This document shows, in pieces, positions 3,719 to 63,328 of a stretch of 64,000 bases of DNA; position 1 is the stretch's first letter; each line of letters begins with the position of its first letter. The stretch spans positions 169,035 to 233,034 of the forward strand of contig JBAZWW010000001.1 of the NCBI GenBank assembly GCA_041660165.1. Direction: 5' to 3'. The stretch comes from Patescibacteria group bacterium (GTDB taxonomy: Bacteria > Patescibacteriota > Patescibacteriia > UBA9934). The notes below the pieces were generated by a model. That model saw only the letters and a program-made list of their open reading frames with translations. It ran no database searches and was not told the DNA's origin. A program made the position numbers and the translations under genes.

Positions 3719-4163
3719 AGAACTTCGCGTTGTCTCCACGCCGGTTGCTTTGGATAGGCTGGGCACGAAAGACTTCAAAACGTTGGTTGGAGAGCTCAAG
3801 GCCACCATGAAAGAAGAAAACGGCGTTGGCATTGCGGCTCCGCAGGTAGGCGTTCATGATCGGCTGATCATTGCAGAAACAAAAGCCGGCCCAACCGCCT
3901 TCATCAATCCAGAAATTGTCGAACGTTCCTTTAAGCTAGTGGAGGGTGAAGAAGGCTGTCTGTCCGTCCCTGGGGTGTGGGGCCTTGTCAAACGCCACCG
4001 TTCAGTTACCGTTAAGGCTATCCAAGAGGACGGCACGCCCATTGGTCTGAAAGCCACGGGCTTGCTCGCTATCATTTTCCAACATGAAATCGACCACCTT
4101 GACGGCATCCTTTTTATTGACCGTGCCACAGAGTTGCGAAAGACCGGTTCATCCCGGATCTAA
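3675..4163 (+). CDS. def: peptide deformylase
   Basis: GIAAPQVG, EGCLSVPG and HEIDHLDG motifs. Confidence 0.92.
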   Translation: MAPMKSLPVLHNPNKELRVVSTPVALDRLGTKDFKTLVGELKATMKEENGVGIAAPQVGVHDRLIIAETKAGPTAFINPEIVERSFKLVEGEEGCLSVPGVWGLVKRHRSVTVKAIQEDGTPIGLKATGLLAIIFQHEIDHLDGILFIDRATELRKTGSSRI

Positions 4164-5013: not shown

Positions 5014-5016
5014 CTC

Positions 5017-5535
5017 TTAGAGTGGCAGAGCCGAAATTGTGTACGTCCCGGCACAGACCTCCTTTTCGGCGGCATCAGCGCAGGTGAGCGTGGCGGTGTC
5101 TGCACCGTAGGGCACCATCATTTTGCAATCTACATTCTTTCCGTCCACGGTTTTTCCCTTGAAGAGCATGCTTCCTGTGTTGGAGGATGAACGGTCATCA
5201 ATAACCGCACCCTTATCCATCATCATGAAATTATTTCCAGGAGCTGGCGGGGAATATGTAAGCGTGGAGTATGGAAGCTTCGTGACACAGGTGCCAGCAG
5301 GATTTGAAAACGTGAGCGCGCTGTACTTTCCAATGATGCCGAAAAGATCTGACTTCACTTCGGAAAACTTCACTGGGCCTTTTGGCGCTTCCGCAACAGG
5401 TGCCGGGACCTCGGCGGGAACGTTTGCTGTTGGAGCAACATTTGACGAAGGTGAAGGAGCCTGACCTGCACAGCCCGCGCCCGTAAGCGCCACAGCTACC
5501 ACCGCAACTCCGAGAAACTTCCGGTAATCCATCAT
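5017..5535 (-). CDS. hypothetical secreted protein / putative lipoprotein
   Basis: N-terminal signal peptide with an LTGAGC lipobox-like segment, followed by a Pro/Ala-rich region. Confidence 0.4.
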   Translation of the reverse strand: MMDYRKFLGVAVVAVALTGAGCAGQAPSPSSNVAPTANVPAEVPAPVAEAPKGPVKFSEVKSDLFGIIGKYSALTFSNPAGTCVTKLPYSTLTYSPPAPGNNFMMMDKGAVIDDRSSSNTGSMLFKGKTVDGKNVDCKMMVPYGADTATLTCADAAEKEVCAGTYTISALPL

Positions 5536-8903: not shown

Positions 8904-9467
8904 TTAGAAGGCTACGTTCACGTTCTGCTTTTCCTTCTCCTCGGCCCCAAAGAACTCGCCGGTCTTGAAACCGAGCAATGGAGCGATGATGTTCGAGGGG
9001 AAAACCTGCACCGCATTATTCATCTCACGCACCGTGGCATTGTAGTAACGACGAGCAGACTGAATGTCGTTTTCGAGAGAAGAGAGCTGTTCCTGAAGCT
9101 GTTTGAAATTTTCCGAGGCCTTGAGGTCAGGATAGCCCTCGGCCACTGCAAACAAGCTCTTGAGTGCGCCGGACAACATCGTTTCCGCTTGTGCTCGGCC
9201 AGCAATCGCTCCAGACGGAACGCTCATAGCGTTCGAGCGAGCCTTAGTCACTTCTTCGAGCACCGAGGACTCATGCGCTTTATAACCTTTTACGGTTTCG
9301 ACCAAGTTCGGCACAAGGTCATAACGTCGTTTTAACTGCACATCAATGTCTGACAGCGCGTTCTTCGTTCTGTTTCTGTAGCTCACAAGCTTGTTAAAGA
9401 TGAGCACAATCCAGCCAAGAATCAGCACCCCAACCACTAAAATAAGAATAGGCATATTGTCTGTCAT
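8904..9467 (-). CDS. lemA: LemA family protein
   Basis: N-terminal TM helix, then ALSDIDVQLKRRYDLVPNLVETVKGY, the conserved LemA core. Confidence 0.88.
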   Translation of the reverse strand: MTDNMPILILVVGVLILGWIVLIFNKLVSYRNRTKNALSDIDVQLKRRYDLVPNLVETVKGYKAHESSVLEEVTKARSNAMSVPSGAIAGRAQAETMLSGALKSLFAVAEGYPDLKASENFKQLQEQLSSLENDIQSARRYYNATVREMNNAVQVFPSNIIAPLLGFKTGEFFGAEEKEKQNVNVAF

Positions 9468-9545
9468 CTCGAGCGTAGCGAGAGATCTGATTGGCCGATG
9501 CCCCTGATTGCCAATTCAGATCCCTCCTTACGTCGGGATGACAAT
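9466..9545. repeat. palindromic dispersed repeat (GTCATCYYGAG...GAGAGATCTGATTGGCC family), hairpin-forming
   Basis: GTCATCTCGAGCGTAGCGAGAGATCTGATTGGCC pairs with GCCAATTCAGATCCCTCCTTACGTCGGGATGAC. Intergenic, between lemA and GT2. Confidence 0.7.
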
Positions 9546-10531: not shown

Positions 10532-11239
10532 CTACAGACCGTGTTTCCTAGCAATAATCTCTCTCGCCTCAGTGTACTTCTTTATGCTCTTTGGTTGCCA
10601 GGGCGAGTATTGCCAAGGAATCCTGTAGGCGAGTTTTGGCAGCCAGGCCGAGCCGATCCTCGATACCCCGTCAATCCGCACGTGGAAGAGAACTCCCGGC
10701 ACGAGTATCCCTCGATGCCCCCGCTCAAGCATGGTCAACCACACGTCCCAGTCTTGCAGACGCTTGATCTGCTCGTCAAACCCCGGAAAATCTGCCCGCC
10801 GAATGAGCGAGGTGGTGTGGGCAAAGTTCATCTTCCGTATCTTCTCATCACTAAACGGCGTCCCCCAAAATGTCTTCCAGCCAAACGTAAAACCAGAATA
10901 GGCATAACTGGCCTGCGGATTTTGTATAAGACTCTTATGCATTTTTTCGAGCATCTCGTTCTCCATGACAATATCCGCATCGCAAAAAATGACATACTCG
11001 CCTCTACTCTCGGCGAACCCTCGGTTCCTTGCCGGATTCGAGCCTTTATTTTCTTGACGAACAACCTTAATCTTGCCGGCGTATTTTTCGAGTACTTTCA
11101 ATGTCTCATCCGTAGACCCGTCATCAACCACAATGATTTCGATCTCCTTATATGTTTGGTCGAGTACCGAATCAATACACCCCGGCAGTGAGCCCGCGTG
11201 CTGATACGTTGGAATGATGACTGAAATAAGTGGTTCCAT
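10532..11239 (-). CDS. glycosyltransferase family 2
   Basis: ISVIIPTYQHAGSL...IIVVDDGSTDET and FCDADI motifs. Confidence 0.85.
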   Translation of the reverse strand: MEPLISVIIPTYQHAGSLPGCIDSVLDQTYKEIEIIVVDDGSTDETLKVLEKYAGKIKVVRQENKGSNPARNRGFAESRGEYVIFCDADIVMENEMLEKMHKSLIQNPQASYAYSGFTFGWKTFWGTPFSDEKIRKMNFAHTTSLIRRADFPGFDEQIKRLQDWDVWLTMLERGHRGILVPGVLFHVRIDGVSRIGSAWLPKLAYRIPWQYSPWQPKSIKKYTEAREIIARKHGL

Positions 11240-11272: not shown

Positions 11273-12462
11273 CCTCTCACCATGATGATCCCCCTCAGCT
11301 TACTCGTTTGCACTTCTCTTGTGAACTGCTCCAACACTCGTACCCGTCCGCGTGATCCGAGCTTTGATCGGAGTGCCGGATTTTCTACGAGTTTCCTAAT
11401 CGCCGCCTCGATCTCTTCGATGTGGTCATTCACAAGCAACCCCGTTTCTCCGTCGAGTACCGCTTCGACAACGCCCCCAATGTTCGTCGCCACCACCGGC
11501 AAACCGAACAAATTGGCTTCGAGGTACACGATTCCAAATCCTTCGCGATCAGTTTCAGACCGAGTAGTCGGCATCACAAAAATATCCGCTGATGCATAAA
11601 TCCCTGGCAGGTCTTCATCACTCGCGTTCAGAATCATTGTTACTCGATCACTCAATCCTCGGCGAGCAATCTCGGTTTCGAGCCTCTCACGCATCGGCCC
11701 ATCACCCACAATTGTATATTTAACGCCTGGCAAATGTTCCAGTATTTCAAGCACCTTCAGGTGCCCCTTTCTCTCAACCAGCCTCGCCACCGTCAACAGC
11801 ATTATCGTATAGTTATTTACCTTGTCATCTCGACCCATTCTGTCGTCTAGACCCATTCTGTCATCTCGACCCATTCTGTCATCTCGAGCAGAGCGAGAGA
11901 TCTGATTGGTCGACAGTGAGATGGGTACCCCAAGCGCCCCGCTGGCCAGCTTCAGCAACTCTTTCAGATCAACCAGCCCCACGCCCTTCCTCACGGATTT
12001 CGACGCCTCCACAAACACATCACTCACCGGCGGGTAGACCGTCAGGATGCGCCGTAAGGGTCGAGCCATGTCTCGACCCCGTACGAACCGCTCCACCTCG
12101 CCCCTCAAAGCCTCCGAATTCGTCACGATCAGGTCAGCACCTCGCAGAATCCTCCTGGACAACCATCTCTTCCACGCATTTCGTCTGGCGAGATCAAAAT
12201 CCATGCTATGCAGGAATATGCCGTACGGACGAGAAAATATCCACGCCACCGTTCCCACTGGCAAAATATGATTCACGAAATACAGATCTGCATCTTTTCG
12301 AGACTTCCAAAAAAATGAAAATAATTCCTTGTAGCCAGGTTTCTTGGACAGCTCAACCACTTTCACCTCGTGCGGGTATGTTTCAACAACCGCCGAAAGA
12401 TAGCGGGCCACGCCTCCTCGCTCTGAAAGCGCACCAAGCATTGGAGCAATCACGCGCCTCAT
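11266..12462 (-). CDS. glycosyltransferase family 4 with repeat-derived interdomain insertion
   Basis: The C-terminal domain has EGFGIVYLEANLFGLPVVATNIGG. The linker contains RDDRMGRDDRMGLDDRMGRDDK, encoded by the tandem/dispersed repeat at 11824-11925. Confidence 0.85.
   Translation of the reverse strand: MRRVIAPMLGALSERGGVARYLSAVVETYPHEVKVVELSKKPGYKELFSFFWKSRKDADLYFVNHILPVGTVAWIFSRPYGIFLHSMDFDLARRNAWKRWLSRRILRGADLIVTNSEALRGEVERFVRGRDMARPLRRILTVYPPVSDVFVEASKSVRKGVGLVDLKELLKLASGALGVPISLSTNQISRSARDDRMGRDDRMGLDDRMGRDDKVNNYTIMLLTVARLVERKGHLKVLEILEHLPGVKYTIVGDGPMRERLETEIARRGLSDRVTMILNASDEDLPGIYASADIFVMPTTRSETDREGFGIVYLEANLFGLPVVATNIGGVVEAVLDGETGLLVNDHIEEIEAAIRKLVENPALRSKLGSRGRVRVLEQFTREVQTSKLRGIIMVRGL
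11824..11925. repeat. tandem 18-bp repeat x3 plus dispersed palindromic repeat core, inside the GT4 CDS
   Basis: GTCATCTCGACCCATTCT / GTCGTCTAGACCCATTCT / GTCATCTCGACCCATTCT, then GTCATCTCGAGCAGAGCGAGAGATCTGATTGGTCGAC. In frame, the repeat length is a multiple of 3. Confidence 0.75.
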
Positions 12463-23346: not shown

Positions 23347-23473
23347 CCGATCAAGAACGTTCGACTGCTCGTCAATTCTCGTGACCGAAGACCCCGTCCG
23401 CCCGCGCGCGAATGGGGTCGTACTGTTTTATATAAGACTCTTATTATATTAGATGCTTATATAATCCCCTCGG

Positions 23474-25413: not shown

Positions 25414-27189
25414 TTATCCGAGGATCGCCTTAATTCTCCGCACGCCCGATGACACTGCTTCTTCTTTTTGGATTTTGAATCCGCCAAGTTCGCCAGTATG
25501 TTGCACGTGGGGGCCGCCACAGATTTCTTTCGAGTAATCACCAATGGAGTAGACGTTTATCTTGCCTCCGATATTGGCGTACTTGTCCTCAAACAATCCG
25601 ATCGCACCACTAGCTTTCGCTTCTTCAACAGTCAACTGCTCAGCCTTCACGGGCATGTCTTTTTTGATCTGCTCGTTGACAATGGCCTCAACTTTTGCCA
25701 ACTCGTCCGGCGTCATCTTGGTGTTGTGCGAGAAGTCGAAACGCAAACGCTCGGCAGTAATGTTGCTGCCCTTCTGTTCAACATGGGGACCGAGAACGTC
25801 GCGCAGAGCTTGATGCAAAATGTGCGTCGCGGTGTGTAGGCGAGTTGTTTCGATGGAATGGTCAGCGAGACCACCGGCGAATTTCTTTTCGGCACCTTGG
25901 CGAGAAAGGTCCTGGTGCTTCTTGAACTCGGCAGCGAATGCTTCACGATCAACCTCTTGACCTTGTTCGTGCGCCAGCTCGTGTGTGACCTCGAGCGGAA
26001 AACCGTACGACTGGTAAAGGTTGAACGCATCCTCGCCGGAAATTGCCTTGTTGCGCTCGAACATCTTCTGGAATTCCCTCAGTCCTTGGGCGAGTGTCTT
26101 CTCAAATTTCTTCGCCTCAGTTTCTATGCCGAGAACTATCGCGTCTCGTTTTTCGATCAGCATTGGATACGCCTCGCCGAGGGACGCCACAACATCATCA
26201 ACAATCGGCGGAACGAGCTTGTCGGATTCGATGCCCAGCTTCTTCGCGTGACGGATCGCCCGGCGGATGAGACGACGCAGGATGTAACCCTGGTCCTTGT
26301 TTGATGGCTCGACACCATCCATAAACATGATCGAGGAAGCTCGAAGGTGATCGGCGATGATCCTCATTGACTTGGTTGTCTCCGGCGCTGCGCCATATTC
26401 CAAACCGGATAAATACATAAGAGTCTTATGTAATCCGGTGAACAATTCCGTCTCGTATACATTCGCGCGGTGTTGTAACGCAACGATCGTGCGTTCCATG
26501 CCCATACCGGTGTCCACACTGCCGTTTACAAGCGGGGTTAAAACCCCGCCTTCGTCCTTGTTGAATTGCATGAACACGTTGTTCCAAATTTCCATCCAGC
26601 GATTGTCTTTTGGATCGTAAACTGCTGGCGGTTCTTCAGCACTGGTCCAATAAAAAATCTCCGTGTCCGGTCCGCACGGACCAGTTTTCCCCGCTGGTCC
26701 CCACCAGTTGTCCTCGCGGCCGAGTTTTGCAATGCGCTCGACGGATACGCCAAGACGAATCCAATGATCGTATGCCTCTTGGTCAAATGGCGTGTTCGCG
26801 TCGCCTTCGAAAACTGTAAATGACAAATGCGATAACGGGATGTTGAGCCAATCCTTGCTCGTCAAAAACTCGAATGACCACTCGATAGATTCTTTTTTGA
26901 AATAGTCGCCGAGCGACCAGTTGCCGAGCATGGTGAAAAAAGTGAGGTGCGTGTTATCACCCACGTCATCAATGTCGCCGGTTCTGATACAGCGCTGGTA
27001 ATCAACCAAGCGCTTGCCCGCCGGGTGAGGCTCGCCGAGCAAATACGGGACGAGCGGATGCATGCCCGCCGTGGTAAAAAGCACAGTCGGATCATTCACC
27101 GGCACCACGGAGGCGGAGGGAATCTCCACGTGGCCCTTCGATTTGAAAAACTCAATGTACTTTTTGCGGAGCTCATTCGCGGTGATCAT
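25414..27189 (-). CDS. alaS: alanine--tRNA ligase, short form lacking the C-terminal C-Ala domain
   Basis: MITANELRKKYIEFFKSKGH, FTTAGMHP and GNWSLGDYFK in the catalytic core, and the editing-domain HTATHIL...CGGPHV. About 590 aa from the proper Met. Confidence 0.9.
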   Translation of the reverse strand: MITANELRKKYIEFFKSKGHVEIPSASVVPVNDPTVLFTTAGMHPLVPYLLGEPHPAGKRLVDYQRCIRTGDIDDVGDNTHLTFFTMLGNWSLGDYFKKESIEWSFEFLTSKDWLNIPLSHLSFTVFEGDANTPFDQEAYDHWIRLGVSVERIAKLGREDNWWGPAGKTGPCGPDTEIFYWTSAEEPPAVYDPKDNRWMEIWNNVFMQFNKDEGGVLTPLVNGSVDTGMGMERTIVALQHRANVYETELFTGLHKTLMYLSGLEYGAAPETTKSMRIIADHLRASSIMFMDGVEPSNKDQGYILRRLIRRAIRHAKKLGIESDKLVPPIVDDVVASLGEAYPMLIEKRDAIVLGIETEAKKFEKTLAQGLREFQKMFERNKAISGEDAFNLYQSYGFPLEVTHELAHEQGQEVDREAFAAEFKKHQDLSRQGAEKKFAGGLADHSIETTRLHTATHILHQALRDVLGPHVEQKGSNITAERLRFDFSHNTKMTPDELAKVEAIVNEQIKKDMPVKAEQLTVEEAKASGAIGLFEDKYANIGGKINVYSIGDYSKEICGGPHVQHTGELGGFKIQKEEAVSSGVRRIKAILG

Positions 27190-40465: not shown

Positions 40466-40551
40466 TTGTCATCTCGAGCTTAGCGAGAGATCTGAATTGG
40501 CCGACCAATCAGATCTCTCCTTACGTCGGGATGACACAATAATTATGACAA
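40466..40551. repeat. palindromic dispersed repeat copy
   Basis: GTCATCTCGAGCTTAGCGAGAGATCTGAATTGGCCGACCAATCAGATCTCTCCTTACGTCGGGATGAC, just upstream of the thioredoxin-like gene start. Confidence 0.7.
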
Positions 40552-42640: not shown

Positions 42641-42871
42641 CTAACCCTGCGCTTCCAGCCGTTTCATGTACTCGGCAAAACGCGCCTTCAGTACGTCAGC
42701 GTGTGCATCAAGCCCCTGATCATCATGAAGCTCACCGATTTCACGGTGTTCTTCAATCACCTCGTCAACAAGGTCAAAGTACGCCGACTCTTCATTGATC
42801 CCCTGCTCAACCCCGGCCGAAACAACTTCCTCAAACAAGTCCTCAAGTGAAAAGATGATATTTTCCGTCAT
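42641..42871 (-). CDS. hypothetical small acidic protein
   Basis: 76 aa and highly acidic; lies immediately upstream of the beta-CASP RNase with a 3-nt gap. Confidence 0.4.
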   Translation of the reverse strand: MTENIIFSLEDLFEEVVSAGVEQGINEESAYFDLVDEVIEEHREIGELHDDQGLDAHADVLKARFAEYMKRLEAQG

Positions 42872-42950
42872 AGATACGGAAAGTATATACTAGGACGCAT
42901 CAGAGAACGAGGACAGAGCGGGGATAGTCCTCTCGTTGACGCAGATGACC

Positions 42951-42990
42951 ATATTATATAAGATACTTATATAATAAGAGTCTTATATAT
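42951..42990. promoter_or_regulatory. AT-rich palindromic element containing ATAAGAGTCTTAT, upstream of the MarR gene
   Basis: TATATAAGATACTTATATAATAAGAGTCTTATATAT. A paralogous element lies at 47141-47183 upstream of dus, and a related one at 23428-23465. Confidence 0.45.
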
Positions 42991-43038: not shown

Positions 43039-43476
43039 ATGGCTCCTCCCCTCGAACGATCAAAAGTTCTCGAACAACTCTTTGAGGACTTCGCCATCAT
43101 CAAGCGCAAGTTCTCACGCGAGAGTCCAACGCACGCCCATCTTCTCGCTCACTCGCAGTGGATTGCGCTCGGAATTATCTTCAAGCAAGGCCCGCTGACG
43201 ATTAAGGCGCTGACCAAAGAACTGAACGTCAGCCAAAGTGCCGCTACGCAGGTGGTAGATTCGCTGGTAGAGAAAAAATTGGTGACGCGAATTGAAAACA
43301 AGAAAGACCGCCGAAGCGTGAGTATCATCCTCGCGCCAAGTGCGCGGGCTATGGCCGTCAAGATGAAACAGCGCATCATCAAGAATCTCACGGAAGTTTT
43401 TTCTCCTCTCTCTGATGAGGAGTTCAAAACATACGCCAAGCTTCACCGAAGAATCGCCGAAAATATCAAACCGTAG
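43039..43476 (+). CDS. MarR family transcriptional regulator
   Basis: Winged-HTH region LTIKALTKELNVSQSAATQVVDSLVEKKLVTRIENKKDRRSV. Confidence 0.8.
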   Translation: MAPPLERSKVLEQLFEDFAIIKRKFSRESPTHAHLLAHSQWIALGIIFKQGPLTIKALTKELNVSQSAATQVVDSLVEKKLVTRIENKKDRRSVSIILAPSARAMAVKMKQRIIKNLTEVFSPLSDEEFKTYAKLHRRIAENIKP

Positions 43477-43479
43477 CGT

Positions 43480-45213
43480 ATGAAGTTTCCTCTTTCTAAG
43501 AAATGGATAATGTTCCTGACCGGCCTCGTCCTTGTCATTCTTGCTGTTGGATACTTTGCCACCCGCAGTTCCGGAAAAGAAATCTACGTTACAGACGCCG
43601 TCAAGCGCGCGGATATCAAAAAAACTGTTGACATTACCGGCTCCCTCTCTCCCCTCTCGCATGCAGATTTGAGTTTTCAGTCAAACGGCAACGTGGCCGG
43701 TATTTTTGTGTCCGTAGGCCAGCTAGTAAAAAGGGGCCAGCCGTTAGCCAGTCTGTCCGCTTCTGATCTCTCGGCCGACGCCAGACGCGCGCAGGCTGAC
43801 CTTGATCTTGCCCTGGCCAGTCCTAAACCGGAGGATATTGCCTCTGCAAAGGCGGACGTTACGAGCGCTGACGTAGCCGTACGCAATGCGGAGACTGCGC
43901 TTTCCATCACAAAGACAGTGAATACCGTAGACCTCAAAAATGCGGATGATGCCGTTATCAAAGCAAAAGAAGACCAGGCAACATCGCTTGCAGATACATT
44001 GCGTGCTGTCACGACCGCCCTCCAGACGGGAGTCATTCAAATCCGTACAGGGCTTTCAAAGGCAGACCAGTTGCTCGGTATTGAAAATACGCTATTCAAT
44101 GATGATTTTGAACGGGAATTCAGCGCGGAAAATCCCCAAGCACTTCAGAGCGCAAAGGATGCCTTCGCTAAAGCCGTGGTTGATCGGAATCTGGCGGAAA
44201 CCGCCGTGGTAGCGTCATCCAGCACTGCGATTGCGCTGACCACGCGCGCGCTGGAAGAAACGTCTGACACGCTCCTGTATACCCGGCAGGCGCTTGATGC
44301 CACGGCCGCAGACTCCCAAGCTCTCTCGCTCGACGATATCGTAGCCTATAAAACAACCATTGACACCGCGCGCACAAATGTAGAATCCGCCCGCTCGGCT
44401 CTCTCTACAGCTGTAGATGCACAAACTGCGGAGACAACCGCATCCGCCCACACGGTGCTCACCGCAGAATTAAACGCAGAGAGCGCGCAAGCAAATGCAA
44501 ACAAAGCCGAGGCGAGCGCCAACGCCAACGTGCTCACCACAAAAGCCGAGCTTCAGAAGGCCAACTCAGCCTATGAGAAGGTCATAGCTCCCCCGCGTAA
44601 CGTAGACATTGCTCCGTATCTTGCGTCCCGCGACGGCGCAACAGCCCGCTACCTGAAAACCGAAATCGTCTCGCCCATTGACGGAAAAATTGGCAAAGTG
44701 GATGTGAAGCTTGGCGAGGCCGTCACTACCGGCACCGCCGTCATCTCTGTTGAGCCAACGTCCGCTACCGCCTACGAAGTGGCGGTTGATGTTCCGGAAA
44801 GCGATGTGGCGCATCTGGCGCTTGGCGATACCGCAACTATTACCTTTGACGCCTTTGGCGCCGATGTAGTCTTCACCGGGTCTCTCTCATCGCTTGATCG
44901 TTCTGAAAAATTGATTGAAGGCGTGGTTTTTTATCAGGCAAAAATTGCCGTGACCGATGGCCCGCGCCTGAATGACCTCAGAAACGGCATGTCCGCGGAC
45001 GTCACGGTACTTACTGATTCAAAATCGAATGTCCTCACTGTCCCCACCAGATCAATCCTTGAAATCAACGGCCAAAAACTTGTTCGCATACTTGTCAACG
45101 ATGCAATTCAAGAGAAACCCGTTGTCGTTGGCTTGCGCGGAGATAACAGCATCTCGGAAATCCTCTCCGGCCTGGCGGAGGGAGACGTGGTGGTTGTCAG
45201 CATCAAAAAATAA
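43480..45213 (+). CDS. efflux periplasmic adaptor (HlyD/MacA family) with very long Ala-rich coiled coil
   Basis: N-terminal TM helix, beta-barrel/lipoyl-like ends and about 250 aa of coiled coil. Confidence 0.7.
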   Translation: MKFPLSKKWIMFLTGLVLVILAVGYFATRSSGKEIYVTDAVKRADIKKTVDITGSLSPLSHADLSFQSNGNVAGIFVSVGQLVKRGQPLASLSASDLSADARRAQADLDLALASPKPEDIASAKADVTSADVAVRNAETALSITKTVNTVDLKNADDAVIKAKEDQATSLADTLRAVTTALQTGVIQIRTGLSKADQLLGIENTLFNDDFEREFSAENPQALQSAKDAFAKAVVDRNLAETAVVASSSTAIALTTRALEETSDTLLYTRQALDATAADSQALSLDDIVAYKTTIDTARTNVESARSALSTAVDAQTAETTASAHTVLTAELNAESAQANANKAEASANANVLTTKAELQKANSAYEKVIAPPRNVDIAPYLASRDGATARYLKTEIVSPIDGKIGKVDVKLGEAVTTGTAVISVEPTSATAYEVAVDVPESDVAHLALGDTATITFDAFGADVVFTGSLSSLDRSEKLIEGVVFYQAKIAVTDGPRLNDLRNGMSADVTVLTDSKSNVLTVPTRSILEINGQKLVRILVNDAIQEKPVVVGLRGDNSISEILSGLAEGDVVVVSIKK

Positions 45214-45214
45214 T

Positions 45215-45904
45215 GTGGCCCCGCACCTCATTCAACTCAAAAACATTTCCAAGGAGTACGTGAACGGAGACGTGATCACGCCCGTCCTTCATAACATCAA
45301 CCTGCTCATCGAGCGGGGCGAATTTGTGGCGCTCATGGGGCCGTCCGGAAGCGGAAAATCCACACTCATGCATATTCTGGGATTTCTTGATCAGCCCACC
45401 ACGGGCAAATACGTGTTCAACGGAGAGAACGTGGCCGAAGCCGATGCACACGCCCTAGCCAAACGCCGACTCAAGGACGTGGGTTTCGTTTTTCAAGCCT
45501 TTCATCTCCTCCCCCATGCCACCGTCCTTGAGAATGTAATGTTGCCCCTGGTGTATCAAGGCGTGAGCAATGGCGAGCGCAAACGCGTGGCTATGAAAGC
45601 GCTTGAAGCCGTTGGGCTAGGCGATCGCGCGTCCCACTTGCCCAACCATATCAGCGGAGGCCAGCGCCAGCGCGTGGCGATTGCGCGCGCCCTTGTGAAT
45701 GATCCCTCGGTGATCTTTGCTGACGAGCCTACAGGAAACCTTGACTCAAAATCTTCCGAGCAAGTCATGGAAATCCTCGAAAAACTGCATAAGGATGGCC
45801 GAACAATTGTCATGGTTACCCATGAGCATGACGTGGCCGAACACGCGAAACGCATTCTCCAAATGAAAGACGGGGTCATTCTCAAGGACTCGAAACATCT
45901 ATGA
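45215..45904 (+). CDS. ABC transporter ATP-binding protein (MacB-type ATPase, separate polypeptide)
   Basis: Walker A GPSGSGKST, signature LSGGQRQR and Walker B IFADEPTGNLD. Probable GTG start at 45215 just after the adaptor stop. Confidence 0.85.
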   Translation: MAPHLIQLKNISKEYVNGDVITPVLHNINLLIERGEFVALMGPSGSGKSTLMHILGFLDQPTTGKYVFNGENVAEADAHALAKRRLKDVGFVFQAFHLLPHATVLENVMLPLVYQGVSNGERKRVAMKALEAVGLGDRASHLPNHISGGQRQRVAIARALVNDPSVIFADEPTGNLDSKSSEQVMEILEKLHKDGRTIVMVTHEHDVAEHAKRILQMKDGVILKDSKHL

Positions 45905-47133
45905 ACCTCCGCGATCTCACGGGTTCTGCCACCACGTCCCTCATCCAAAATAAGTCGAGGTCTGTTTTAACGATCCTTGGCATTGTCATTGGTATTGCCG
46001 CCGTCATCCTCATGCTCTCCATTGGCCAAGGCGCCCAAGCACTCATCTTGAACCAGGTGGCGAGTTTGGGATCAGACCAGATATTTATTGCCCCAGGCGC
46101 TAGCGAAACCTCTGGCGGTCCGCCAACCCCATTTGTAAAGCAGTCACTTAAATATAACGACGTCAAAGAGCTTCGCAAGCGAGGCCCGTTTAGCTTTGTG
46201 GCTGCCCAGCTCATTTCTACGGGGACGGTAGAAAGTGCGGATGCCAGCAAGGTGTCATCAATCGTTGGCGCTGATGAATTTCAACTCCTGGTGTTCCCGG
46301 CTGAGGTTGCGTCAGGGCGCTTCCTTGATAACACCGACGTAACAGACTACGCCAAGGTGGCGGTGATTGGCATAGACATTGCCTCAGATCTTTTTGGAGA
46401 CTCAGATCCCATCAACCAAAAAATTACGATCAACAAAGTAAACCTCCGCGTCATTGGCGTCATGGAAAGACAGGGTTCCCGGTTCTTCCAAAATGTGGAT
46501 GGCTATGTGTACCTGCCCGTCACCACCGCGCAACGCGACGTGCTGGGAGTGGACTACATTTCTTACATTGCCGCCCGCGCTACGGGAGACCTGGTGTACG
46601 CCAAAGAGGAGGCAACGATGATCATGCGGGACCAGCACGATATTAACAATCCCCAAAATGACCTCTCAAAAGATGACTTTCACATCCAGAGCCAGGAAGA
46701 CGCGGTGGCCACCATTGGCATAGTTGGGACCGCGCTCAGCGTGCTTTTGGCATCTATCGCTGCTATCTCGCTCTTGGTTGGCGGAATCGGCATCATGAAC
46801 ATCATGCTCGTGTCTGTAACTGAACGCACCAAAGAAATCGGTCTGCGAAAAGCTATTGGCGCAACCGAGCAAGAAATCCTCCGCCAGTTCCTGCTCGAAG
46901 CCGTCATCCTCACCTCATTCGGCGGAGTGGTGGGCGTCCTTCTTGGCGTGACAGCCTCCTATCTCATCGCTTTCGGCGCCTCGTACTTCGTAGCGGGCTG
47001 GCGCGTGATTATCCCGCCATCTGCGATTGTTGCCTCCGTCCTTGTCTCTACCGCCGTCGGCCTCGGCTTCGGCTACTATCCAGCGCGTCGAGCAGCTAAA
47101 CTGGATCCGATTGAGGCGCTCAGATATGAATAA
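45901..47133 (+). CDS. ABC transporter permease (FtsX/MacB family)
   Basis: N-terminal TM helix, large periplasmic domain and a C-terminal FtsX 3-TM bundle. ATGA start-stop overlap. Confidence 0.85.
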   Translation: MNLRDLTGSATTSLIQNKSRSVLTILGIVIGIAAVILMLSIGQGAQALILNQVASLGSDQIFIAPGASETSGGPPTPFVKQSLKYNDVKELRKRGPFSFVAAQLISTGTVESADASKVSSIVGADEFQLLVFPAEVASGRFLDNTDVTDYAKVAVIGIDIASDLFGDSDPINQKITINKVNLRVIGVMERQGSRFFQNVDGYVYLPVTTAQRDVLGVDYISYIAARATGDLVYAKEEATMIMRDQHDINNPQNDLSKDDFHIQSQEDAVATIGIVGTALSVLLASIAAISLLVGGIGIMNIMLVSVTERTKEIGLRKAIGATEQEILRQFLLEAVILTSFGGVVGVLLGVTASYLIAFGASYFVAGWRVIIPPSAIVASVLVSTAVGLGFGYYPARRAAKLDPIEALRYE

Positions 47134-47172
47134 TCTTCGAAATTTATATAAGTATCTAATATAATAAGAGAC

Positions 47173-48141
47173 TTGTCTATTATGGATCTCGATTGGAAAT
47201 CCCTCCCCCGCCCGATTATCGCCCTTTCCCCCATGGCTGACATGACGGACTCGGCTTTTTGCCGTTTGGTGAAAAAACTCAGTGGAGTTGACGCACCGGT
47301 TGTGTTTCGCGAGATGGTGTCGAGCGAGGCCGTAGTTCGCGGGAACGAAAAAACCCTCGGCATGACTGCCATTCATCCCGACGAGAGACCGCTCGTTCAA
47401 CAAATCTTCGGTTCAGATCCCTCAACGATGGCGGAAGCCGGTAGAATTATCGAGGCCGAGCATCACCCCGAAGGCTTTGATATCAACATGGGCTGTCCCG
47501 TGTACAAAATCGTCCACAATTTTAACGGCGCAGCGCTCATGAAGGATCCCGCCCTAGCCGGCCGAATTATCGAAGCAATGAAAAAGGCCATCACCGTTCC
47601 CCTCTCCGTGAAAATCCGCCTTGGCTGGTCAGACCCCCGCGAGTGCCTCGAGTTCGTAAAAGTACTCGAAGAAGCTGGCGCTGATCTCATCACCATTCAT
47701 GGTCGAACAAAAACCCAAGGTTACTCCGGCGTGGCTGACTGGGCCATGGTTGGCGAGGCAAAAAAACAAGTGAAGATTCCCGTGCTTTGTAACGGCGACG
47801 TTCATACCGCCGAACGGATCGTCGAGGCTCTTAAAGTGTCCGGCGCTGACGGCGTCCTAATCGCTCGTGGCGCCCTTGGCAACCCCTGGATCTTCCGCGA
47901 CTACGCCCTGCTGGCCAGGGGCGAGACTCCGCCCGTCATCACACTCGAAGAACGCATCAGAATAGTGAAACGGCACCTCGACCTACATCTCGAAGAGTAC
48001 GGCGACCACGGTGTCCACACCTTCCGCAAGCATCTCTCTTGGTACTTCAAAGGTCTTCCTGGCGCCAAGGCATATAGAGACCCCATGATGCGGGCTAATA
48101 CAAAGGACGAGCTGCTGAAAATATTAAATGAGGTAAAATAA
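47173..48141 (+). CDS. dus: tRNA-dihydrouridine synthase
   Basis: IALSPMADMTDSAFCRL and DINMGCP motifs. Confidence 0.85.
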   Translation: MSIMDLDWKSLPRPIIALSPMADMTDSAFCRLVKKLSGVDAPVVFREMVSSEAVVRGNEKTLGMTAIHPDERPLVQQIFGSDPSTMAEAGRIIEAEHHPEGFDINMGCPVYKIVHNFNGAALMKDPALAGRIIEAMKKAITVPLSVKIRLGWSDPRECLEFVKVLEEAGADLITIHGRTKTQGYSGVADWAMVGEAKKQVKIPVLCNGDVHTAERIVEALKVSGADGVLIARGALGNPWIFRDYALLARGETPPVITLEERIRIVKRHLDLHLEEYGDHGVHTFRKHLSWYFKGLPGAKAYRDPMMRANTKDELLKILNEVK

Positions 48142-58143: not shown

Positions 58144-59856
58144 TTACAAAACCTGTCCGCCAAAAGCCTCAACCAAAGTATCAACGGGATTTGTTTCTTC
58201 TTTGCCTTTTTCAAGGACGCAGACAATGGCCTTGGGCATGGCTTGCATGACGTTGCCAATGGCTTCTTGGAGGAGACGGATGGCTTTGTGCTCTTCCATG
58301 GCCTTAACATGAAACATGTAGGATAGGCTGATGGTCAGTGTGTCTCCGTCAATCGCTACCGGCTTGGACGAGTTCAAGATCATCGGTAGGGACATGTTGC
58401 GCTCAGCCACGTAGGCACAGCAACGGCCCCATTTTTCTTGGAGGTCGGCGAGAGTGAAGGGGAGGGTTAGAGAAGGTGATAAAGGGTTAGAAAGGGTTTG
58501 ATCCACCCCGACGACAGGAGGGGTAGCCTTGGTGCTATCAATGGGAGATGGTGGAAGATCGAAATCGGACGTCTGGAAAGCGCTTGCCGGCTCTGGAATC
58601 GGTGGTCGAGAGACTGGGATTGAGGCGATAGGCATTGGCTCGTTTCCTCGCCCCGCTAGGGGAGCCTCGCCCGTAGGCTGCAGAGGGCTGCGGCCGAGGG
58701 AGGGCAGGAGAGGGGCTGGTGGGATGGGAGCGGATTGAACGGCGATAGGAGCTACGGGGGCGCTCGAACAGGTCTCGACAATTGCGATCTCCAGTGGCAA
58801 CTGCGGAATCGAGCTCAAACTTGGCCGAAATCTTGCCGACAACATTAAGTCGAGAAACCGGCGGTGATCACTCGCAGTTCCGAGCTTGGCTGTCTCGGCT
58901 AATCGCTTGAGCGTGCCGGGATCGTATTCCTCGTTGCTCGAGAACCCGAGAGACGCGAACATCATAGTCCGCACGTACTCAAGAATCTCATCGAGCAGAT
59001 GACGAACGGATCCGCCCTGCTCAACAAACTCGTCTAATATTCGCAACGCCTCCGGGGCGTCTTTTTTGGTAACAGCCTGAACCAACTCAACCACAATTTC
59101 TGTGTGCGTTGCCGGCAAAATAATCGAGGCCTCCTTCTCAGTCACGGTTTTCTCACCGAGCGCAAATAGCTGACCGAGCAAACTCTCAGCATCACGCAAA
59201 CAGCCTTCGGATAGTCGAGCAATAGAAACGAACACCGACGGCTCAACCGCCACGCCCTCAGCTTTCGAGATTGTTTCGAGTCTCTCGATCATCTCTTTCG
59301 GCGGAACTCGATGAAAATCAAACCGCTGGCAACGCGAAATAATGGTCGCCGGAATTTTGTGAAGCTCGGTGGTGGCGAGAATAAAAACTACGTGCGCCGG
59401 CGGTTCTTCAAGCGTTTTCAAGAGCGCGTTGAAACTTCCCGTCGAAAACATGTGCACCTCATCAATAATAAAAACCTTGAACTTCCCACGCGACGGGGCG
59501 GTCCGAACATTCTCGATGATGTTTTCTCTTGTTTCATCCACCTTCGTCTGGCTAGCGGCATCGATCTCAATGATGTCCATCATTCGTCCTTGTTTCGTTT
59601 CAAGACAAGACCAGCAGGTATTGCACGGCTCACTCTGTCCAGCTTGCCTAGTCTCGCAATTCAAAGCCTTGGCGAGCAATCTCGCAATGGTCGTCTTACC
59701 CACGCCTCGCGGACCCGCAAACAGATACGCATGCGCCACACTCCCCTGCGCCAGCTGGTTCGTTACGGTGCGCACCACATGTCCCTGTTCCGCCACCTCG
59801 GCAAAGGTATTAGGTCGGTATTTTCTATACAGTGCTTCGGCCATAGTATGTGTCAT
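58144..59856 (-). CDS. dnaX: DNA polymerase III subunit gamma/tau
   Basis: YRPNTFAEV, GPRGVGKTT, the Cys4 zinc module and domain III. The proline-rich linker includes the repeat-derived SNPLSPSLTLP. Confidence 0.9.
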   Translation of the reverse strand: MTHTMAEALYRKYRPNTFAEVAEQGHVVRTVTNQLAQGSVAHAYLFAGPRGVGKTTIARLLAKALNCETRQAGQSEPCNTCWSCLETKQGRMMDIIEIDAASQTKVDETRENIIENVRTAPSRGKFKVFIIDEVHMFSTGSFNALLKTLEEPPAHVVFILATTELHKIPATIISRCQRFDFHRVPPKEMIERLETISKAEGVAVEPSVFVSIARLSEGCLRDAESLLGQLFALGEKTVTEKEASIILPATHTEIVVELVQAVTKKDAPEALRILDEFVEQGGSVRHLLDEILEYVRTMMFASLGFSSNEEYDPGTLKRLAETAKLGTASDHRRFLDLMLSARFRPSLSSIPQLPLEIAIVETCSSAPVAPIAVQSAPIPPAPLLPSLGRSPLQPTGEAPLAGRGNEPMPIASIPVSRPPIPEPASAFQTSDFDLPPSPIDSTKATPPVVGVDQTLSNPLSPSLTLPFTLADLQEKWGRCCAYVAERNMSLPMILNSSKPVAIDGDTLTISLSYMFHVKAMEEHKAIRLLQEAIGNVMQAMPKAIVCVLEKGKEETNPVDTLVEAFGGQVL

Positions 59857-59861
59857 CCTGA

Positions 59862-60160
59862 GACCTATCTCTGTGTCATCTCGAGTCCCGTCCGACGGGA
59901 CGAGAGATCTAATTGGCCGTCAGTTTCTCCAGCATCTTATGTCGATCTAGCATAAAAGACAAACCACTCACCCCCACCCTTTTCCCCTCAATAAATGAAA
60001 ATCAGATCTCTCGGCCTTCAGACGGCCTCGAGATGACAAGAGCTGACCGATCCACCAATTCTACCCCTCCTATCGTCGGGGTAGGACAGCCTGAATCGGC
60101 CGATCAGATCCCTCGGGCGTAGCCCTACGGGCGAGCCTTCGTTAGCGCTCAGGATGACAC
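59862..60160. repeat. cluster of two or three palindromic dispersed repeat copies between dnaX and the VirD4-like gene
   Basis: GTCATCCTGAGACC..., GTCATCTCGAGTCCCGTCCGACGGGACGAGAGATCTAATTGGCCGTCAG, and the reverse-orientation copy ...GCGCTCAGGATGACAC at 60120-60160. Confidence 0.65.
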
Positions 60161-60197: not shown

Positions 60198-62795
60198 CTA
60201 GGCGACCGGTGGCGGGGGTGGGGCGGTGATCTTTTTGCCCTTAGGGCCAAGACCGGCGCGTTCTGTAATTTCGGCAGAGACCTCATCCTTATCACGGCCG
60301 TATTGGATACGCGAAATCTCCTTGAGGGCAGCACCCACCCTCTTATTGCCTACCTGTTTAGGAAACACCTTAATGTTAAACGGCTTGCCCTGTGAGCCAT
60401 CAATGATCAGCTTCACATTCCATGTCAACGCAGAGTTATTCATCAAATCATACCCGCTGAAGGTGGGCTCGAAAATCTTGGCAAGGACCTCAGTATCCTC
60501 CGGACCAACGCGCGAAACAAAGTATGAGCCAACGTTACCAAGCACCGCATCACGAATCTCTGTCTTTCCGTCCTTTACCAGCTGGCCCATGTACTGGTGA
60601 GCCATGATTAAGCTTAGTTTGTATTTTCTAGCTTCAGAAAGAATGGTGGCAATAGACGGCGTGATGAAGTTCTGGAACTCGTCAATATAGAGATAGAACG
60701 GCCGGCGCTTTTCCTCAGGCATGTCCGCGCGGGCAAAGGCGGCCATCTGCAATTTTGAAACTAGAATCAAACCGAGCAAGTTGGCATTCACGTCGCCCGT
60801 TTTTCCTTTCGACAAATTCACGAGCAGAATCTTGCCGTTATCCATGATATCGCGGAAATTGAAAGCTGACTTGGTCTGGCCAATGATATTGCGCATCATC
60901 TCGTTCTCAACAAACCTGCCAACCTTGGAAACAAGGTAGCCCATCATTTCACTCTTGTGATAATCGCTCGTTTTGGCCATTTCATCTTCCCAGAACGAAC
61001 GAACAACAGGGTCTTTCACCTTATCTACCCATTTCTTTTGGAACGCCTCATCCGCAATCATGCGCGGGATCTCAATCAGCGTGCCAGGGTTCTCAACATC
61101 AGCCATGAGCGTCAGCATGTAATTGCGCATGTTGTGCTCAAACATCGGGCCGATCATTTCCGGCGGGAAGAGCATATAAAACACACTGATCATTTCCTGC
61201 ACAGCAAAATCGCGCATCCCCTCATTTGGCGCCTCAAGCATGTTGAGTCCCATCGGCTTGTCCGTATCCGACGGATTGAAATAAATGACATCGTCAATCC
61301 TATCCTTTGGAATAAGTTCGAGTAATCCGTCAGCCAAGTCCCCGTGCGGATCAATGACCGCAATGCCCCGGCCCGCACGGATATCCTGCACTGCAAGATT
61401 CTTAATGAATTCAGATTTACCAGTACCCGTTTTACCAATGATGTACGTATGGCGAAGACGATCAGCCTCTTTGATGAAAATATCCGTCTTCTTTCCGCGA
61501 TATTCGTTGTAGCCGAGTAATAATCCCTCGGTAGGGATGTTGGTTGGCGGTGGGGCCGAACGGGCATGCATCCAGCGGATGTTAGGCGTTTCACTCGTAG
61601 GTAGCGGAAGATGCCAAAGACTCGTCAGCTCCTCAGTATTCAGAACAAGTTTGTAACCCTCAGAAAATGTGCGGAAAATAAACGCCTCAATCAGCGCCCG
61701 CTTTGATCCGGGGATGCTCTTCTCAAGCGAATTGCCGTACTCGTAAATGTTGTACTGGCCAAAAGCCTGAATGACGTTTGAAAGGGCCAGCTGAGCGGAT
61801 TCGGCCGTGGCAGAAGAAGCTACGATGCGAATATTGGATTCAAGTCCTGCTTTGCTGAGCTTATTTTCTATACCCTCAAGCATCTTTGTTTCAGCCGCAG
61901 ACATCTTGCGTTCGCGCAACTTTTCTTTCTCTTTCTCATGAGTCTTTTCAGAAAAGAACCAATCACGCCAGCCCTCGCCAGCGTTCCCCTTCAAAGCCTG
62001 CTCCAGCGTCATCCCTTTCTGCATGTTCTTCACAATCTTCATGCCCGGTTCCCGCCAAGAATGATGCGTAGGGCGAACAAGAAACTGAATAGCCACGCCA
62101 TCGCCATCAGGGACCTTTGACAAGGCATTCGTCAAAGCGTTCAGCGGATCAACTTCGATTTCTTTATAGGTCTTCAAAGGGAATGCACTCTTGCGTTTGA
62201 ACTTCAAATACCCGCCAAGTACCACGCCCGTTGGGGAAAACATGTTGTAGTCGCCGACGTCTTCCATTTCTGCATCTGGATACTGCGCGTGCATCTGCTC
62301 AGAAAAAAACTCTTGATACTTGAGCGGAATAGTCACGTAAAAACTGATGAGCTTCTCCATGGCCACAATCTCAAAAGAGAAAACGTCAGACTCGCCGTAC
62401 AGCCAGGCATGCAGACCGTGATCCGGCTTCAAACCGCCGAGCGCTGAAAAAATGGACTCGCCAACAGCCACTTTTTCCTTTGTGATCTGGGCCGTAGGAA
62501 TCTGCCTAGCTTCTTCCTCCGAACGAAACTTTGGCAAAATGATGCGAAGCGTCACCAGCCGGTCCTCTCCCCCGCGGGCATGCGCCTGCGCGTGGAGTTT
62601 TGCTCGCAAAATGTTAATACCGATAATGAAAATAACGGCAAGAACCACAGCGCCTATTAAAAACGGCAAGTACTGAGCAAAGCCCGAACTTTGCGCCGTG
62701 ACTATAATCTGGCCGGTGTCCGTAGACCCAAAAAGCGGATCTTGCCCAAGACCGGTATCAAGCTGGGCCAATAATGTTCCTCCAAGTAAAATCAC
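60198..62795 (-). CDS. VirD4/TraD-like (type IV coupling protein / HerA-FtsK superfamily) ATPase with N-terminal TM helices
   Basis: Walker A IGKTGTGKSEF, VIDPHGD, Walker B-like FYLYIDEFQNF and a C-terminal polyproline tail. Confidence 0.6.
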   Translation of the reverse strand: MILLGGTLLAQLDTGLGQDPLFGSTDTGQIIVTAQSSGFAQYLPFLIGAVVLAVIFIIGINILRAKLHAQAHARGGEDRLVTLRIILPKFRSEEEARQIPTAQITKEKVAVGESIFSALGGLKPDHGLHAWLYGESDVFSFEIVAMEKLISFYVTIPLKYQEFFSEQMHAQYPDAEMEDVGDYNMFSPTGVVLGGYLKFKRKSAFPLKTYKEIEVDPLNALTNALSKVPDGDGVAIQFLVRPTHHSWREPGMKIVKNMQKGMTLEQALKGNAGEGWRDWFFSEKTHEKEKEKLRERKMSAAETKMLEGIENKLSKAGLESNIRIVASSATAESAQLALSNVIQAFGQYNIYEYGNSLEKSIPGSKRALIEAFIFRTFSEGYKLVLNTEELTSLWHLPLPTSETPNIRWMHARSAPPPTNIPTEGLLLGYNEYRGKKTDIFIKEADRLRHTYIIGKTGTGKSEFIKNLAVQDIRAGRGIAVIDPHGDLADGLLELIPKDRIDDVIYFNPSDTDKPMGLNMLEAPNEGMRDFAVQEMISVFYMLFPPEMIGPMFEHNMRNYMLTLMADVENPGTLIEIPRMIADEAFQKKWVDKVKDPVVRSFWEDEMAKTSDYHKSEMMGYLVSKVGRFVENEMMRNIIGQTKSAFNFRDIMDNGKILLVNLSKGKTGDVNANLLGLILVSKLQMAAFARADMPEEKRRPFYLYIDEFQNFITPSIATILSEARKYKLSLIMAHQYMGQLVKDGKTEIRDAVLGNVGSYFVSRVGPEDTEVLAKIFEPTFSGYDLMNNSALTWNVKLIIDGSQGKPFNIKVFPKQVGNKRVGAALKEISRIQYGRDKDEVSAEITERAGLGPKGKKITAPPPPPVA

Positions 62796-63328
62796 ATGGT
62801 GTCTCGGCCAGCATGGGCCCGTTCCTCTACGAATTTAGCAAGCTCGGTCTCTTTGATTGAAGCTTCCTGTGTCTGGTAAGAACGCTCGACATTGGGGATA
62901 ATCCCAAGCCATTTTCTGACGCCCTTCAGCGCCTTATGGGGCCTGTAATGACCCGTACTGATGTCTTTCGCAAGCTCCGCCTCAAGCGTCTCCCCCTCTT
63001 CTTTCATCTTCTGTTGAATAGCGGGCGTCTGCGCCTCCCACAGCTTCATCATTTTTTTGTCTACCAGAATGCCATCTATTTTCTCGACCACCTGATCCTT
63101 CATGGCAGGAATCCGCACCACCGCTGGCGCCCTAGCAACCTCGACTGCCGGTGAAGGGACAACCGGCTCCGGGGGAGTCTCGACCGCTGGCATGACGGCC
63201 TCAGAGGCTGGAGCTGGCGCAAGCTCAACACCAGCCGGCTTTTCCGGTGTACCTTCAACCACGTTCTCTAGGGTATCCACCGGTTTAGCCGGCGCTACCT
63301 CCGGAATAGGGACAATCGGGAATTCCAT
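62792..63328 (-). CDS. hypothetical protein (Pro/Ala-rich N-terminus) co-transcribed with the coupling-ATPase-like gene
   Basis: ORF with a 4-nt overlap (ATGA) with the downstream ATPase. Confidence 0.4.
   Translation of the reverse strand: MEFPIVPIPEVAPAKPVDTLENVVEGTPEKPAGVELAPAPASEAVMPAVETPPEPVVPSPAVEVARAPAVVRIPAMKDQVVEKIDGILVDKKMMKLWEAQTPAIQQKMKEEGETLEAELAKDISTGHYRPHKALKGVRKWLGIIPNVERSYQTQEASIKETELAKFVEERAHAGRDTM

Follow-up and report, generated by a model that had tools for sequence, protein, structure and literature searches.

A 13-bp palindrome, ATAAGA-S-TCTTAT, recurs in a 64,000-nucleotide stretch of Patescibacteria DNA (hereafter 'the window', meaning this whole stretch), both within genes and just upstream of marR, a gene encoding a regulator of the MarR family. 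Comparison across genomes indicates that the palindrome is probably the operator of this adjacent repressor, placed at the promoters of the marR-efflux genes and of dus, and that the perfect copies lying away from promoters (hereafter 'orphans') are most simply extra sites for the same protein. The motif is over-represented, occurs in a two-site architecture that overlaps promoters, is conserved above its flanks and co-occurs with one MarR subfamily in Patescibacteria and Armatimonadota. A 229-kb metagenomic contig (ENA ERZ27249449 k141_176793), from the metagenome-assembled genome (MAG) of a Patescibacteria group bacterium, contains the window without any difference.

The exact 13-mer, ATAAGASTCTTAT (ATAAGA-S-TCTTAT), is present five times in the window, with starts at 2252, 10926, 23432, 26417 and 42974, just where the original prediction had placed it. 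Dinucleotide-preserving shuffles of the window contained 0.02 copies on average, and none of 100 reached five. The expected count, given earlier as about 0.002, ranges from 0.001 to 0.02 depending on the null model. A census of every palindrome with 6-nucleotide arms separated by 0 to 4 nucleotides returned ATAAGA-S-TCTTAT as the only recurring one in the window. The flanking 18 kb of the same contig (about 9 kb on each side) hold no additional copy of the 13-mer. When two mismatches to the 13-mer are permitted, the only sites gained in the window are at 42958 and 47164; they correspond to the two imperfect relatives already pointed out, at 42958-42970 (ATAAGATACTTAT) and 47164-47176 (ATAAGAGACTTGT), and a further relative lies at 23448-23460 (ATTAGATGCTTAT). 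With the relaxed pattern ATAAG-N3-CTTAT, the window holds six perfect sites and four with one mismatch, three of these four within the composite elements described below, while sites with two mismatches are at background level. Site quality is bimodal: singletons are all perfect, and singletons with one or two mismatches are not in excess.

Each of the three intergenic occurrences is part of a block of about 35-40 bp, TTATATAAG-nnn-CTwATATAATAAGAGwCTTrT. In these composites, which we call A, B' and C, two ATAAG-N3-CTTAT palindromes start 16 bp apart with TATAAT between them, and the entire composite is itself a 35-bp palindrome. The three are mutually paralogous over about 40 bp, as had been proposed for the AT-rich elements before marR, before dus and at 23428-23465, and their similarity ends at the block edges. 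Composites A and C lie on the forward strand and B' on the reverse strand. The elements and the genes associated with them are as follows.

42936 to 42941, forward strand: -35 hexamer TTGACG of the predicted marR promoter

42958 to 42970: auxiliary site of composite A, ATAAGATACTTAT, whose left half TAAGAT (42959 to 42964) is the predicted -10; identical in the close relative L009 (see below)

42974 to 42986: main site of composite A, the perfect palindrome ATAAGAGTCTTAT, over the predicted marR transcription start

43039 to 43476, forward strand: marR, encoding a 145-residue winged-helix regulator of the MarR family (Pfam PF01047), the proposed binder

43480 to 47133, forward strand: efflux cassette, with an HlyD/YknX-like adaptor (43480-45213), an ATP-binding cassette (ABC) ATPase (45260-45904) and a MacB/FtsX permease (45901-47133)

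47148 to 47176, forward strand: composite C, upstream of dus, with ATAAGTATCTAAT at 47148-47160, TATAAT at 47160-47165 and ATAAGAGACTTGT at 47164-47176

47182 to 48141, forward strand: dus, encoding a tRNA dihydrouridine synthase, the predicted second target; its ATG lies 5 nucleotides past the main site

23432 to 23460, reverse strand: orphan composite B', with a perfect site at 23432-23444 and the auxiliary site ATTAGATGCTTAT at 23448-23460

The promoter scan upstream of marR gave TTGACG-17-TAAGAT, so that the predicted -10 coincides with the left half of the first palindrome. The main site lies 16 bp from the auxiliary site and ends 52 bp before the marR ATG, not 64 bp before it as first stated. 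Upstream of dus the scan gave TCGAAA-17-TATAAT, and the second palindrome of composite C covers the transcription start; dus is called from the ATG at 47182, 5 nucleotides after the site, and not from 47173.

The regulator itself is an ordinary member of its family by domain score (PF01047, E=1.6e-13, 50.8 bits against a cut-off of 24.6; PF12802, 47.6 against 27), and its best sequence matches in the PDB are MarR-family chains, SlyA included. All matches to NCBIfam equivalog models fall far below their cut-offs; the top one, SlyA, reaches 40 bits against 120, and the protein is therefore not a SlyA member. By sequence it is a generic family member belonging to an uncharacterised subfamily of about 120 clusters and to none of the named subfamilies tested (MarR proper, SlyA, OhrR, AdcR, HpaR, FabT and others were considered). 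The adaptor gene begins 3 nucleotides after marR, and the efflux cassette is predicted to be co-transcribed with it. A marR gene followed by adaptor, ABC ATPase and FtsX permease is the classic regulator-plus-efflux arrangement.

Is the composite tied to this kind of regulator beyond the window? We scanned one genome per species, 185,579 species in all, with the pattern TAAGNNNCTWATATAATAAGNNNCTT, which has 20 specified positions and for which we estimate a chance expectation below one match under uniform composition. The scan returned ten matches, and the organism of the window is not among the species representatives of GTDB that were matched. Six of the ten lie 9-20 bp upstream of a gene encoding a protein of 145-186 residues, and all six proteins belong to the MarR family. 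These loci are labelled Magasanikbacteria, Saccharibacteria, Peribacteria, an Armatimonadota MAG and two MAGs labelled Gammaproteobacteria; MdlB-type ABC exporters are the next genes in three of them. The six proteins are only 28-37% identical to the MarR of the window. They share with it the recognition helix, I/V-T/S-x-S-A-A-T/S-Q-L/V-x-D/E-x-L-V (SSAATQ..D..LV in the window), and a DRR wing; in the window MarR the helix is VSQSAATQVVDSLV and the wing KDRR, and both recur in regulators beside the same operator elsewhere. Three of the remaining matches fall within AT-rich Clostridia-type sequence and look like chance occurrences, and the match in Chryseotalea (L018) has no MarR gene downstream.

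Two further features of these matches deserve mention. L022, from a low-GC Coprovivens (Clostridia-type), has two composite-like copies (3730-3760 and 4993-5024), 1.26 kb apart and with shared flanks, neither of which adjoins a MarR gene. The two 'uncultured Gammaproteobacteria' MAGs (L020 and L023) have a marR promoter and gene layout almost identical to those of the Magasanikbacteria MAG L017, and their contigs may be mis-binned or mislabelled.

The association also holds when the search starts from the protein. A profile of the seven proteins, that of the window and the six above, retrieved a small family of 123 clusters at E <= 1e-10, from which we looked up seven members, none of them chosen by its DNA. 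Six came with upstream DNA (L105, L106, L108, L110, L112 and L113); for the seventh, P0144, which had no DNA for a promoter check, the gene list gives marR followed by an ABC exporter. All six loci carry palindromes 5-31 bp before the start codon, overlapping a TTGAC-type promoter, and in five of them the palindromes come as a pair spaced by 16 bp.

L105: GTAAGCTACTTAT-ata-GTAAGCAGCTTGT; downstream, marR-adaptor-ABC-FtsX in the same order as in the window

L106: a degenerate pair; downstream, marR and a major facilitator superfamily (MFS) transporter

L108: ATTAGGGACTAAT; downstream, marR-adaptor-ABC-FtsX

L110 and L113 (Armatimonadota): TTGACA-16-TATAAT with two sites immediately after; downstream, iron-sulphur (Fe-S) assembly genes

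L112: two sites, for example ATTAGCACCTAAT; downstream, an ABC exporter pair

Exporters of the ABC or MFS type lie directly downstream at most of the homologue loci. Taking both searches together, the two-site layout recurs at the marR promoters of 12 other loci. On sequence evidence, then, the association of this MarR subfamily with its operator holds in both search directions and across phyla.

The members of the subfamily in Armatimonadota are 186 residues long, with a Cys-containing C-terminal extension, and their genes (L110 3940-6420, L113 9940-11580, L015 1334-3030) lie upstream of Fe-S genes encoding an Mrp/NBP35-type ATPase and NifU, and the two-site operator comes immediately after TTGACA-16-TATAAT. 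To judge by these sequences, they may be MarR-type Fe-S or redox regulators.

As a control we took the surroundings of alaS in 80 relatives, 1.1 Mb in total. This DNA lacks genes of the MarR subfamily and has just one exact 13-mer; composites are absent from it too, against 0.2 for each replicate of the shuffle. These results bear on the idea that a different protein, either another regulator or an organiser of the ParB, Noc or MatP type, binds the palindrome, its presence at the marR promoter being cross-talk. The palindromes are spread over coding and intergenic DNA, as parS, NBS and matS are, these being exact palindromes found in both kinds of DNA; moreover, all five perfect copies share a fixed A-S-T centre, which is not required at the marR promoters of other lineages. 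We nevertheless consider this reading unlikely: whichever way the search is run, the motif goes with a single MarR subfamily across phyla, it is absent where the subfamily gene is absent (the 1.1-Mb control), it does not resemble the canonical parS (TGTTNCACGTGAAACA), and we identified no candidate gene for such a binder in the 82 kb formed by the window and its flanks. A nucleoid-type role is conceivable.

The single 13-mer of the control, ATAAGACTCTTAT, lies at 9971-9983 of L073, a distant Patescibacteria relative whose AlaS is 55% identical. It is 17 nucleotides upstream of the alaS ATG and overlaps a TTGAAT-17-TATAAT promoter; we estimate that about 0.08 copies would be expected in 1.1 Mb. 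Its position before alaS, compared with that of the window copy inside alaS, is curious and may be due to chance.

A closer comparison is offered by the one close homologue of the window MarR (90% identity) found among 5.8 billion clusters. The contigs that carry it (L009-L011) have a nucleotide identity of about 82% with the window. In the alignment of the region upstream of marR, the composite is kept at 36 of 38 positions between L009 and the window and the -35 block CGTTGACGC is conserved, whereas the 13 bp between them are unrecognisable. The auxiliary site is unchanged and the main site differs by a single change, T to A. In L009, too, the two-palindrome composite precedes both marR and dus.

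The gene order of L009 differs from that of the window: dus directly follows marR (2827-2894) with no efflux cassette, as opposed to the 3.7-kb adaptor-ABC-FtsX block that separates them in the window (43476-47182). Since L105 and L108, two distant members of the subfamily, have adaptor-ABC-FtsX, L009 has probably lost the cassette.

The explanation that we favour, an operator for the neighbouring MarR, would work as follows. The 13-bp palindrome would be the highest-affinity form of an operator half-site pair, (A/G)TAAG-N3-CTTA(T/C), and a MarR dimer (the product of 43039-43476) would recognise each palindrome. At marR-hlyD-ABC-ftsX and at dus, two dimers would sit on sites 16 bp apart, that is, about one and a half helical turns. 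As the sites overlap the -10 and the transcription start, RNA polymerase would be kept out when both dimers are in place; marR-adaptor-ABC-FtsX would thereby be repressed, as would dus in this lineage. The repressor would come off on meeting a small molecule, probably one that the efflux pump transports. The binding itself, the repression and the release by a ligand are inferred here from what is established for other members of the MarR family (E. coli MarR with marO sites I and II, MexR, MepR). The orphan copies would be further sites for the same MarR, gained in this lineage by selection on DNA, and might serve as roadblocks, for titration or in some other role.

Several observations do not sit easily with this explanation. 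Four perfect copies (in priA, in the gene of a GT2 glycosyltransferase, in alaS and in the spacer at 23432) are not at promoters, three of them being intragenic, and a local repressor has no need of such orphans. Composite B' has no -35, no downstream open reading frame and no promoter detectable by the promoter scan. In 108.7 kb of other MarR-bearing loci we found no further perfect site away from the marR promoters, which makes the orphans peculiar to this genome, of which our sample (the window plus 18 kb of flank) covers 82 kb. The marR start lies 52 bp from the site in the window, as against 5-31 bp in other lineages. Finally, the A-S-T centre is invariant in the five perfect copies and free at the marR promoters of other lineages: either the protein reads the centre here, or the copies have a common origin, or another factor is involved. 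The earlier proposal, that the MarR encoded at 43039 acts on an operator here, is well founded for the promoter-proximal composites, where the comparative evidence is strong, but on its own it leaves four perfect copies away from promoters unexplained.

The three intragenic copies are located as follows.

2252 to 2264: priA copy, codon 111, phase 0, ATA AGA CTC TTA TAT, encoding IRLLY

10926 to 10938: GT2 glycosyltransferase copy, codon 101, phase 1, CAT AAG AGT CTT ATA, encoding HKSLI

26417 to 26429: alaS copy, codon 254, phase 1, CAT AAG ACT CTT ATG, encoding HKTLM; the site extends to the 19-bp palindrome TACATAAGAGTCTTATGTA, as predicted

The coding copies had been said to fall in different frames and within different peptides. 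This is true of priA; the GT2 and alaS copies are both in phase 1 and encode the similar peptides HKSLI and HKTLM. All three lie where the protein sequence is variable. The priA copy is within a hypervariable linker after the 3'-DNA-binding domain, and the GT2 copy is in a segment that varies among homologues (for both genes the nearest relatives are 59-65% identical and were compared at the protein level). The alaS copy, in a variable segment of AlaS, is absent in relatives with 79-82% AlaS identity: these have ILKQLEE or ILKKLEQ where the window has LHKTLMY, with no change in length, which indicates that the site arose by substitutions in this lineage and that the ancestral residues were lost. 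Placement in protein-variable segments and change of the encoded residues together point to selection acting on DNA. The fourth orphan, at 23432, lies between convergent gene ends, the stop of a rimK-like gene being at 23474 and that of a 252-residue gene at 23346. A small RNA or tRNA downstream of B' was considered and rejected, as there is no Rfam or ARAGORN match there.

One way to account for the orphans is that MarR binds the motif but has acquired a genome-wide role in which they are the functional core, as roadblocks, nucleoid anchoring or bridging sites, or affinity sinks. By this account, selection wrote perfect operators into variable segments of the essential genes priA and alaS, as well as into the GT2 gene and the convergent spacer, in a genome with very few regulators. 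Four perfect copies away from promoters, where about 0.02 would be expected, argue for it, and so do the perfection of all singletons, with no population of weak sites, and the location of the sites in protein-variable segments whose residues are altered relative to relatives. There is also a precedent: local MarR-type repressors can become global regulators with many chromosomal sites, as is the case of SlyA/RovA (PMC6401476). On the other hand, the extra sites are missing from the 108.7 kb of other MarR-bearing loci, the sample of this genome amounts to 82 kb, and A and C lie on the forward strand while B' lies on the reverse, so that a polar function is unlikely. We regard a genome-wide role of this sort, including the writing of operators into these particular genes, as a possibility to be kept in mind, at roughly one chance in five.

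Could the copies instead be pieces or inserted units of a small mobile palindrome that spread in this genome, resembling repetitive extragenic palindromic (REP) sequences or miniature inverted-repeat transposable elements (MITE), whose likeness to an operator stems from a shared origin? B' and C have a common 27-nucleotide core (TTATATAAG-Y-ATCTAATATAATAAGAG) with one mismatch, a near-identity that suggests one local duplication, apparently a recent one. B' sits at convergent gene ends, the usual location of REP sequences, the singletons are all perfect, as expected of young copies, and the whole composite forms a 35-bp palindrome. Yet the shared block extends over at most about 40 bp in composites and at most 18 bp in singletons, so the longer shared flanks that the original prediction would have taken as a sign of one mobile sequence are missing. 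Relative to their homologues, priA, GT2 and alaS show no length change and no target-site duplications, which argues that these sites arose by substitution and not by insertion. The composite is also ancient, being tied to marR promoters in many lineages, and its pattern has no match in the viral contigs scanned, a check that had been suggested at the outset. A mobile origin consequently seems improbable to us.

Even less probable is a DNA uptake signal comparable to the DNA uptake sequence (DUS) of Neisseria or the uptake signal sequence (USS) of Pasteurellaceae, an option raised in the original prediction; such a signal would stay numerous through the preference of the competence machinery for DNA bearing it. 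The coding copies are indeed at tolerant positions and were made at the expense of the protein sequence, and some Patescibacteria have been reported to be naturally competent. However, DUS and USS are found at about one per kb, in hundreds to thousands of copies, and the density here, about 1 per 16 kb over 82 kb, is at least 10 times lower. The motif is palindromic, and to our knowledge the known uptake signals are not palindromes. Half of its occurrences fit the fixed promoter layout of two sites that goes with a MarR gene in distant phyla. The motif is not enriched in relatives: the 1.1 Mb taken from 80 of them contain one exact 13-mer, and the three closest (AlaS identity of 79-82%) have none, a weak test given that these amount to about 26 kb. 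Nor is there any com or pil gene among the called genes of the 82 kb.

We give hardly any credence to the notion that the coding copies act as hairpins in mRNA. The alaS copy does fold strongly (-16.2 kcal/mol, z = -3.7), but those of priA (z = -0.2) and GT2 (z = +1.3) fold no better than shuffles, and a stem of 6 bp with a 1-nucleotide loop cannot form. A replication fork-trap of the RTP/Ter type was rejected as well: the composites face both directions within a monotonic GC skew, and linkage to marR explains them better. We likewise rejected a link to GANTC methylation or restriction, considered in view of the GASTC centre of the motif, as GANTC is not particularly avoided in the window (observed/expected ratio of 0.87).

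As a kind of system, an autoregulated MarR with a two-site operator and an efflux operon is already known; new here are the sequence of the operator, this subfamily and its distribution in Patescibacteria and Armatimonadota. E. coli MarR binds sites I and II of marO. The system described here resembles MarR/marO, MexR, MepR and EmrR/MprA in that a dimeric winged-helix regulator of the MarR family is encoded by the first gene of an efflux operon, and it resembles repressors of the MarR/marO type in having two (pseudo)palindromic sites in its own promoter, over the -35/-10/start region. It differs from them in the low identity of the protein and the lack of any NCBIfam equivalog at cut-off, in the operator, ATAAG-N3-CTTAT with a fixed 16-bp spacing, in the MacB/YknXYZ-type ABC pump and the Patescibacteria host, in dus as an additional predicted target, and in the perfect copies inside unrelated genes.

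The SlyA consensus operator is TTAGCAAGCTAA (PMC2156107, PMC5797941). The motif shares with the SlyA/RovA operators a short AT-rich palindrome with 5-bp half-sites, and its 5-N3-5 geometry is close to that of SlyA, with a spacer of 3 bp here and 2 bp in SlyA. SlyA-like TTAG/CTAA half-sites even occur within this subfamily, in ATTAGCACCTAAT (L112) and ATTAGGGACTAAT (L108). Unlike SlyA, the system gives no evidence in our data of countersilencing or of an H-NS partner. DUS and USS are likewise short exact words found within genes at protein-tolerant positions, but the present motif is palindromic, sparse, linked to a regulator promoter across phyla and not common to relatives. It recalls the parS/ParB, NBS/Noc and matS/MatP systems in being an exact palindrome (13-16 bp in these cases) with one copy per several kb in coding and intergenic DNA; it has no sequence similarity to those sites, and no ParB-, Noc- or MatP-like gene is linked to it, a MarR gene co-occurring with it instead.

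Regulatory motifs are almost unknown for Patescibacteria, and in the literature searched we found no paper tying a MarR operator to this group. The pairing of a regulator subfamily with an operator made of two sites 16 bp apart, which extends over several candidate phyla as well as Armatimonadota and leads to exporter operons, gives a starting regulon that can be tested in organisms difficult to grow. Efflux pumps controlled by a MarR repressor are textbook biology, and the only unusual element is the presence of perfect operator copies inside genes; should these have a function, this minimal genome would offer a case of regulator co-option.

One neighbouring gene may be co-regulated with marR, from which it diverges and with which it has a 167-bp intergenic region in common.

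42641 to 42871, reverse strand: gene of a 76-residue acidic protein

This protein was considered as an alternative binder and rejected: being acidic and without a Pfam domain, it is unlikely to bind DNA.

Some minor features of the window may be recorded here. The priA homologue (1922-3718, 598 residues) has a Pfam match to the 3'-DNA-binding domain alone, with no helicase domain at E <= 0.001 in Pfam; the Cys-rich zinc-binding region and the C-terminal part of PriA are well conserved among relatives. A VirD4/TraG-like coupling protein of 865 residues (TrwB_AAD_bind, T4SS-DNA_transf) is encoded at 60198-63328, next to the gene of a 178-residue protein of unknown function. GCNGC is strongly under-represented in the window (99 observed against 346 expected, ratio 0.29), other 5-bp palindromes having ratios of 0.77 to 1.1; this looks like avoidance of an Fnu4HI-type restriction site. 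The second most over-represented set of words in the window comes from a family of intergenic long-hairpin repeats of about 70 nucleotides (TGTCATCYYGA..GAGAGATCTGATTGG / CCAATCAGATCTCTCG..TCGAGATGACA), found at 9462-9545, 11823-11905, 40467-40540 and 59852-60040, with partial copies at 6793 and 60149. These repeats look REP-like or terminator-like, and the copy at 11.8 kb contains GACAGAATGGGTC sub-repeats.

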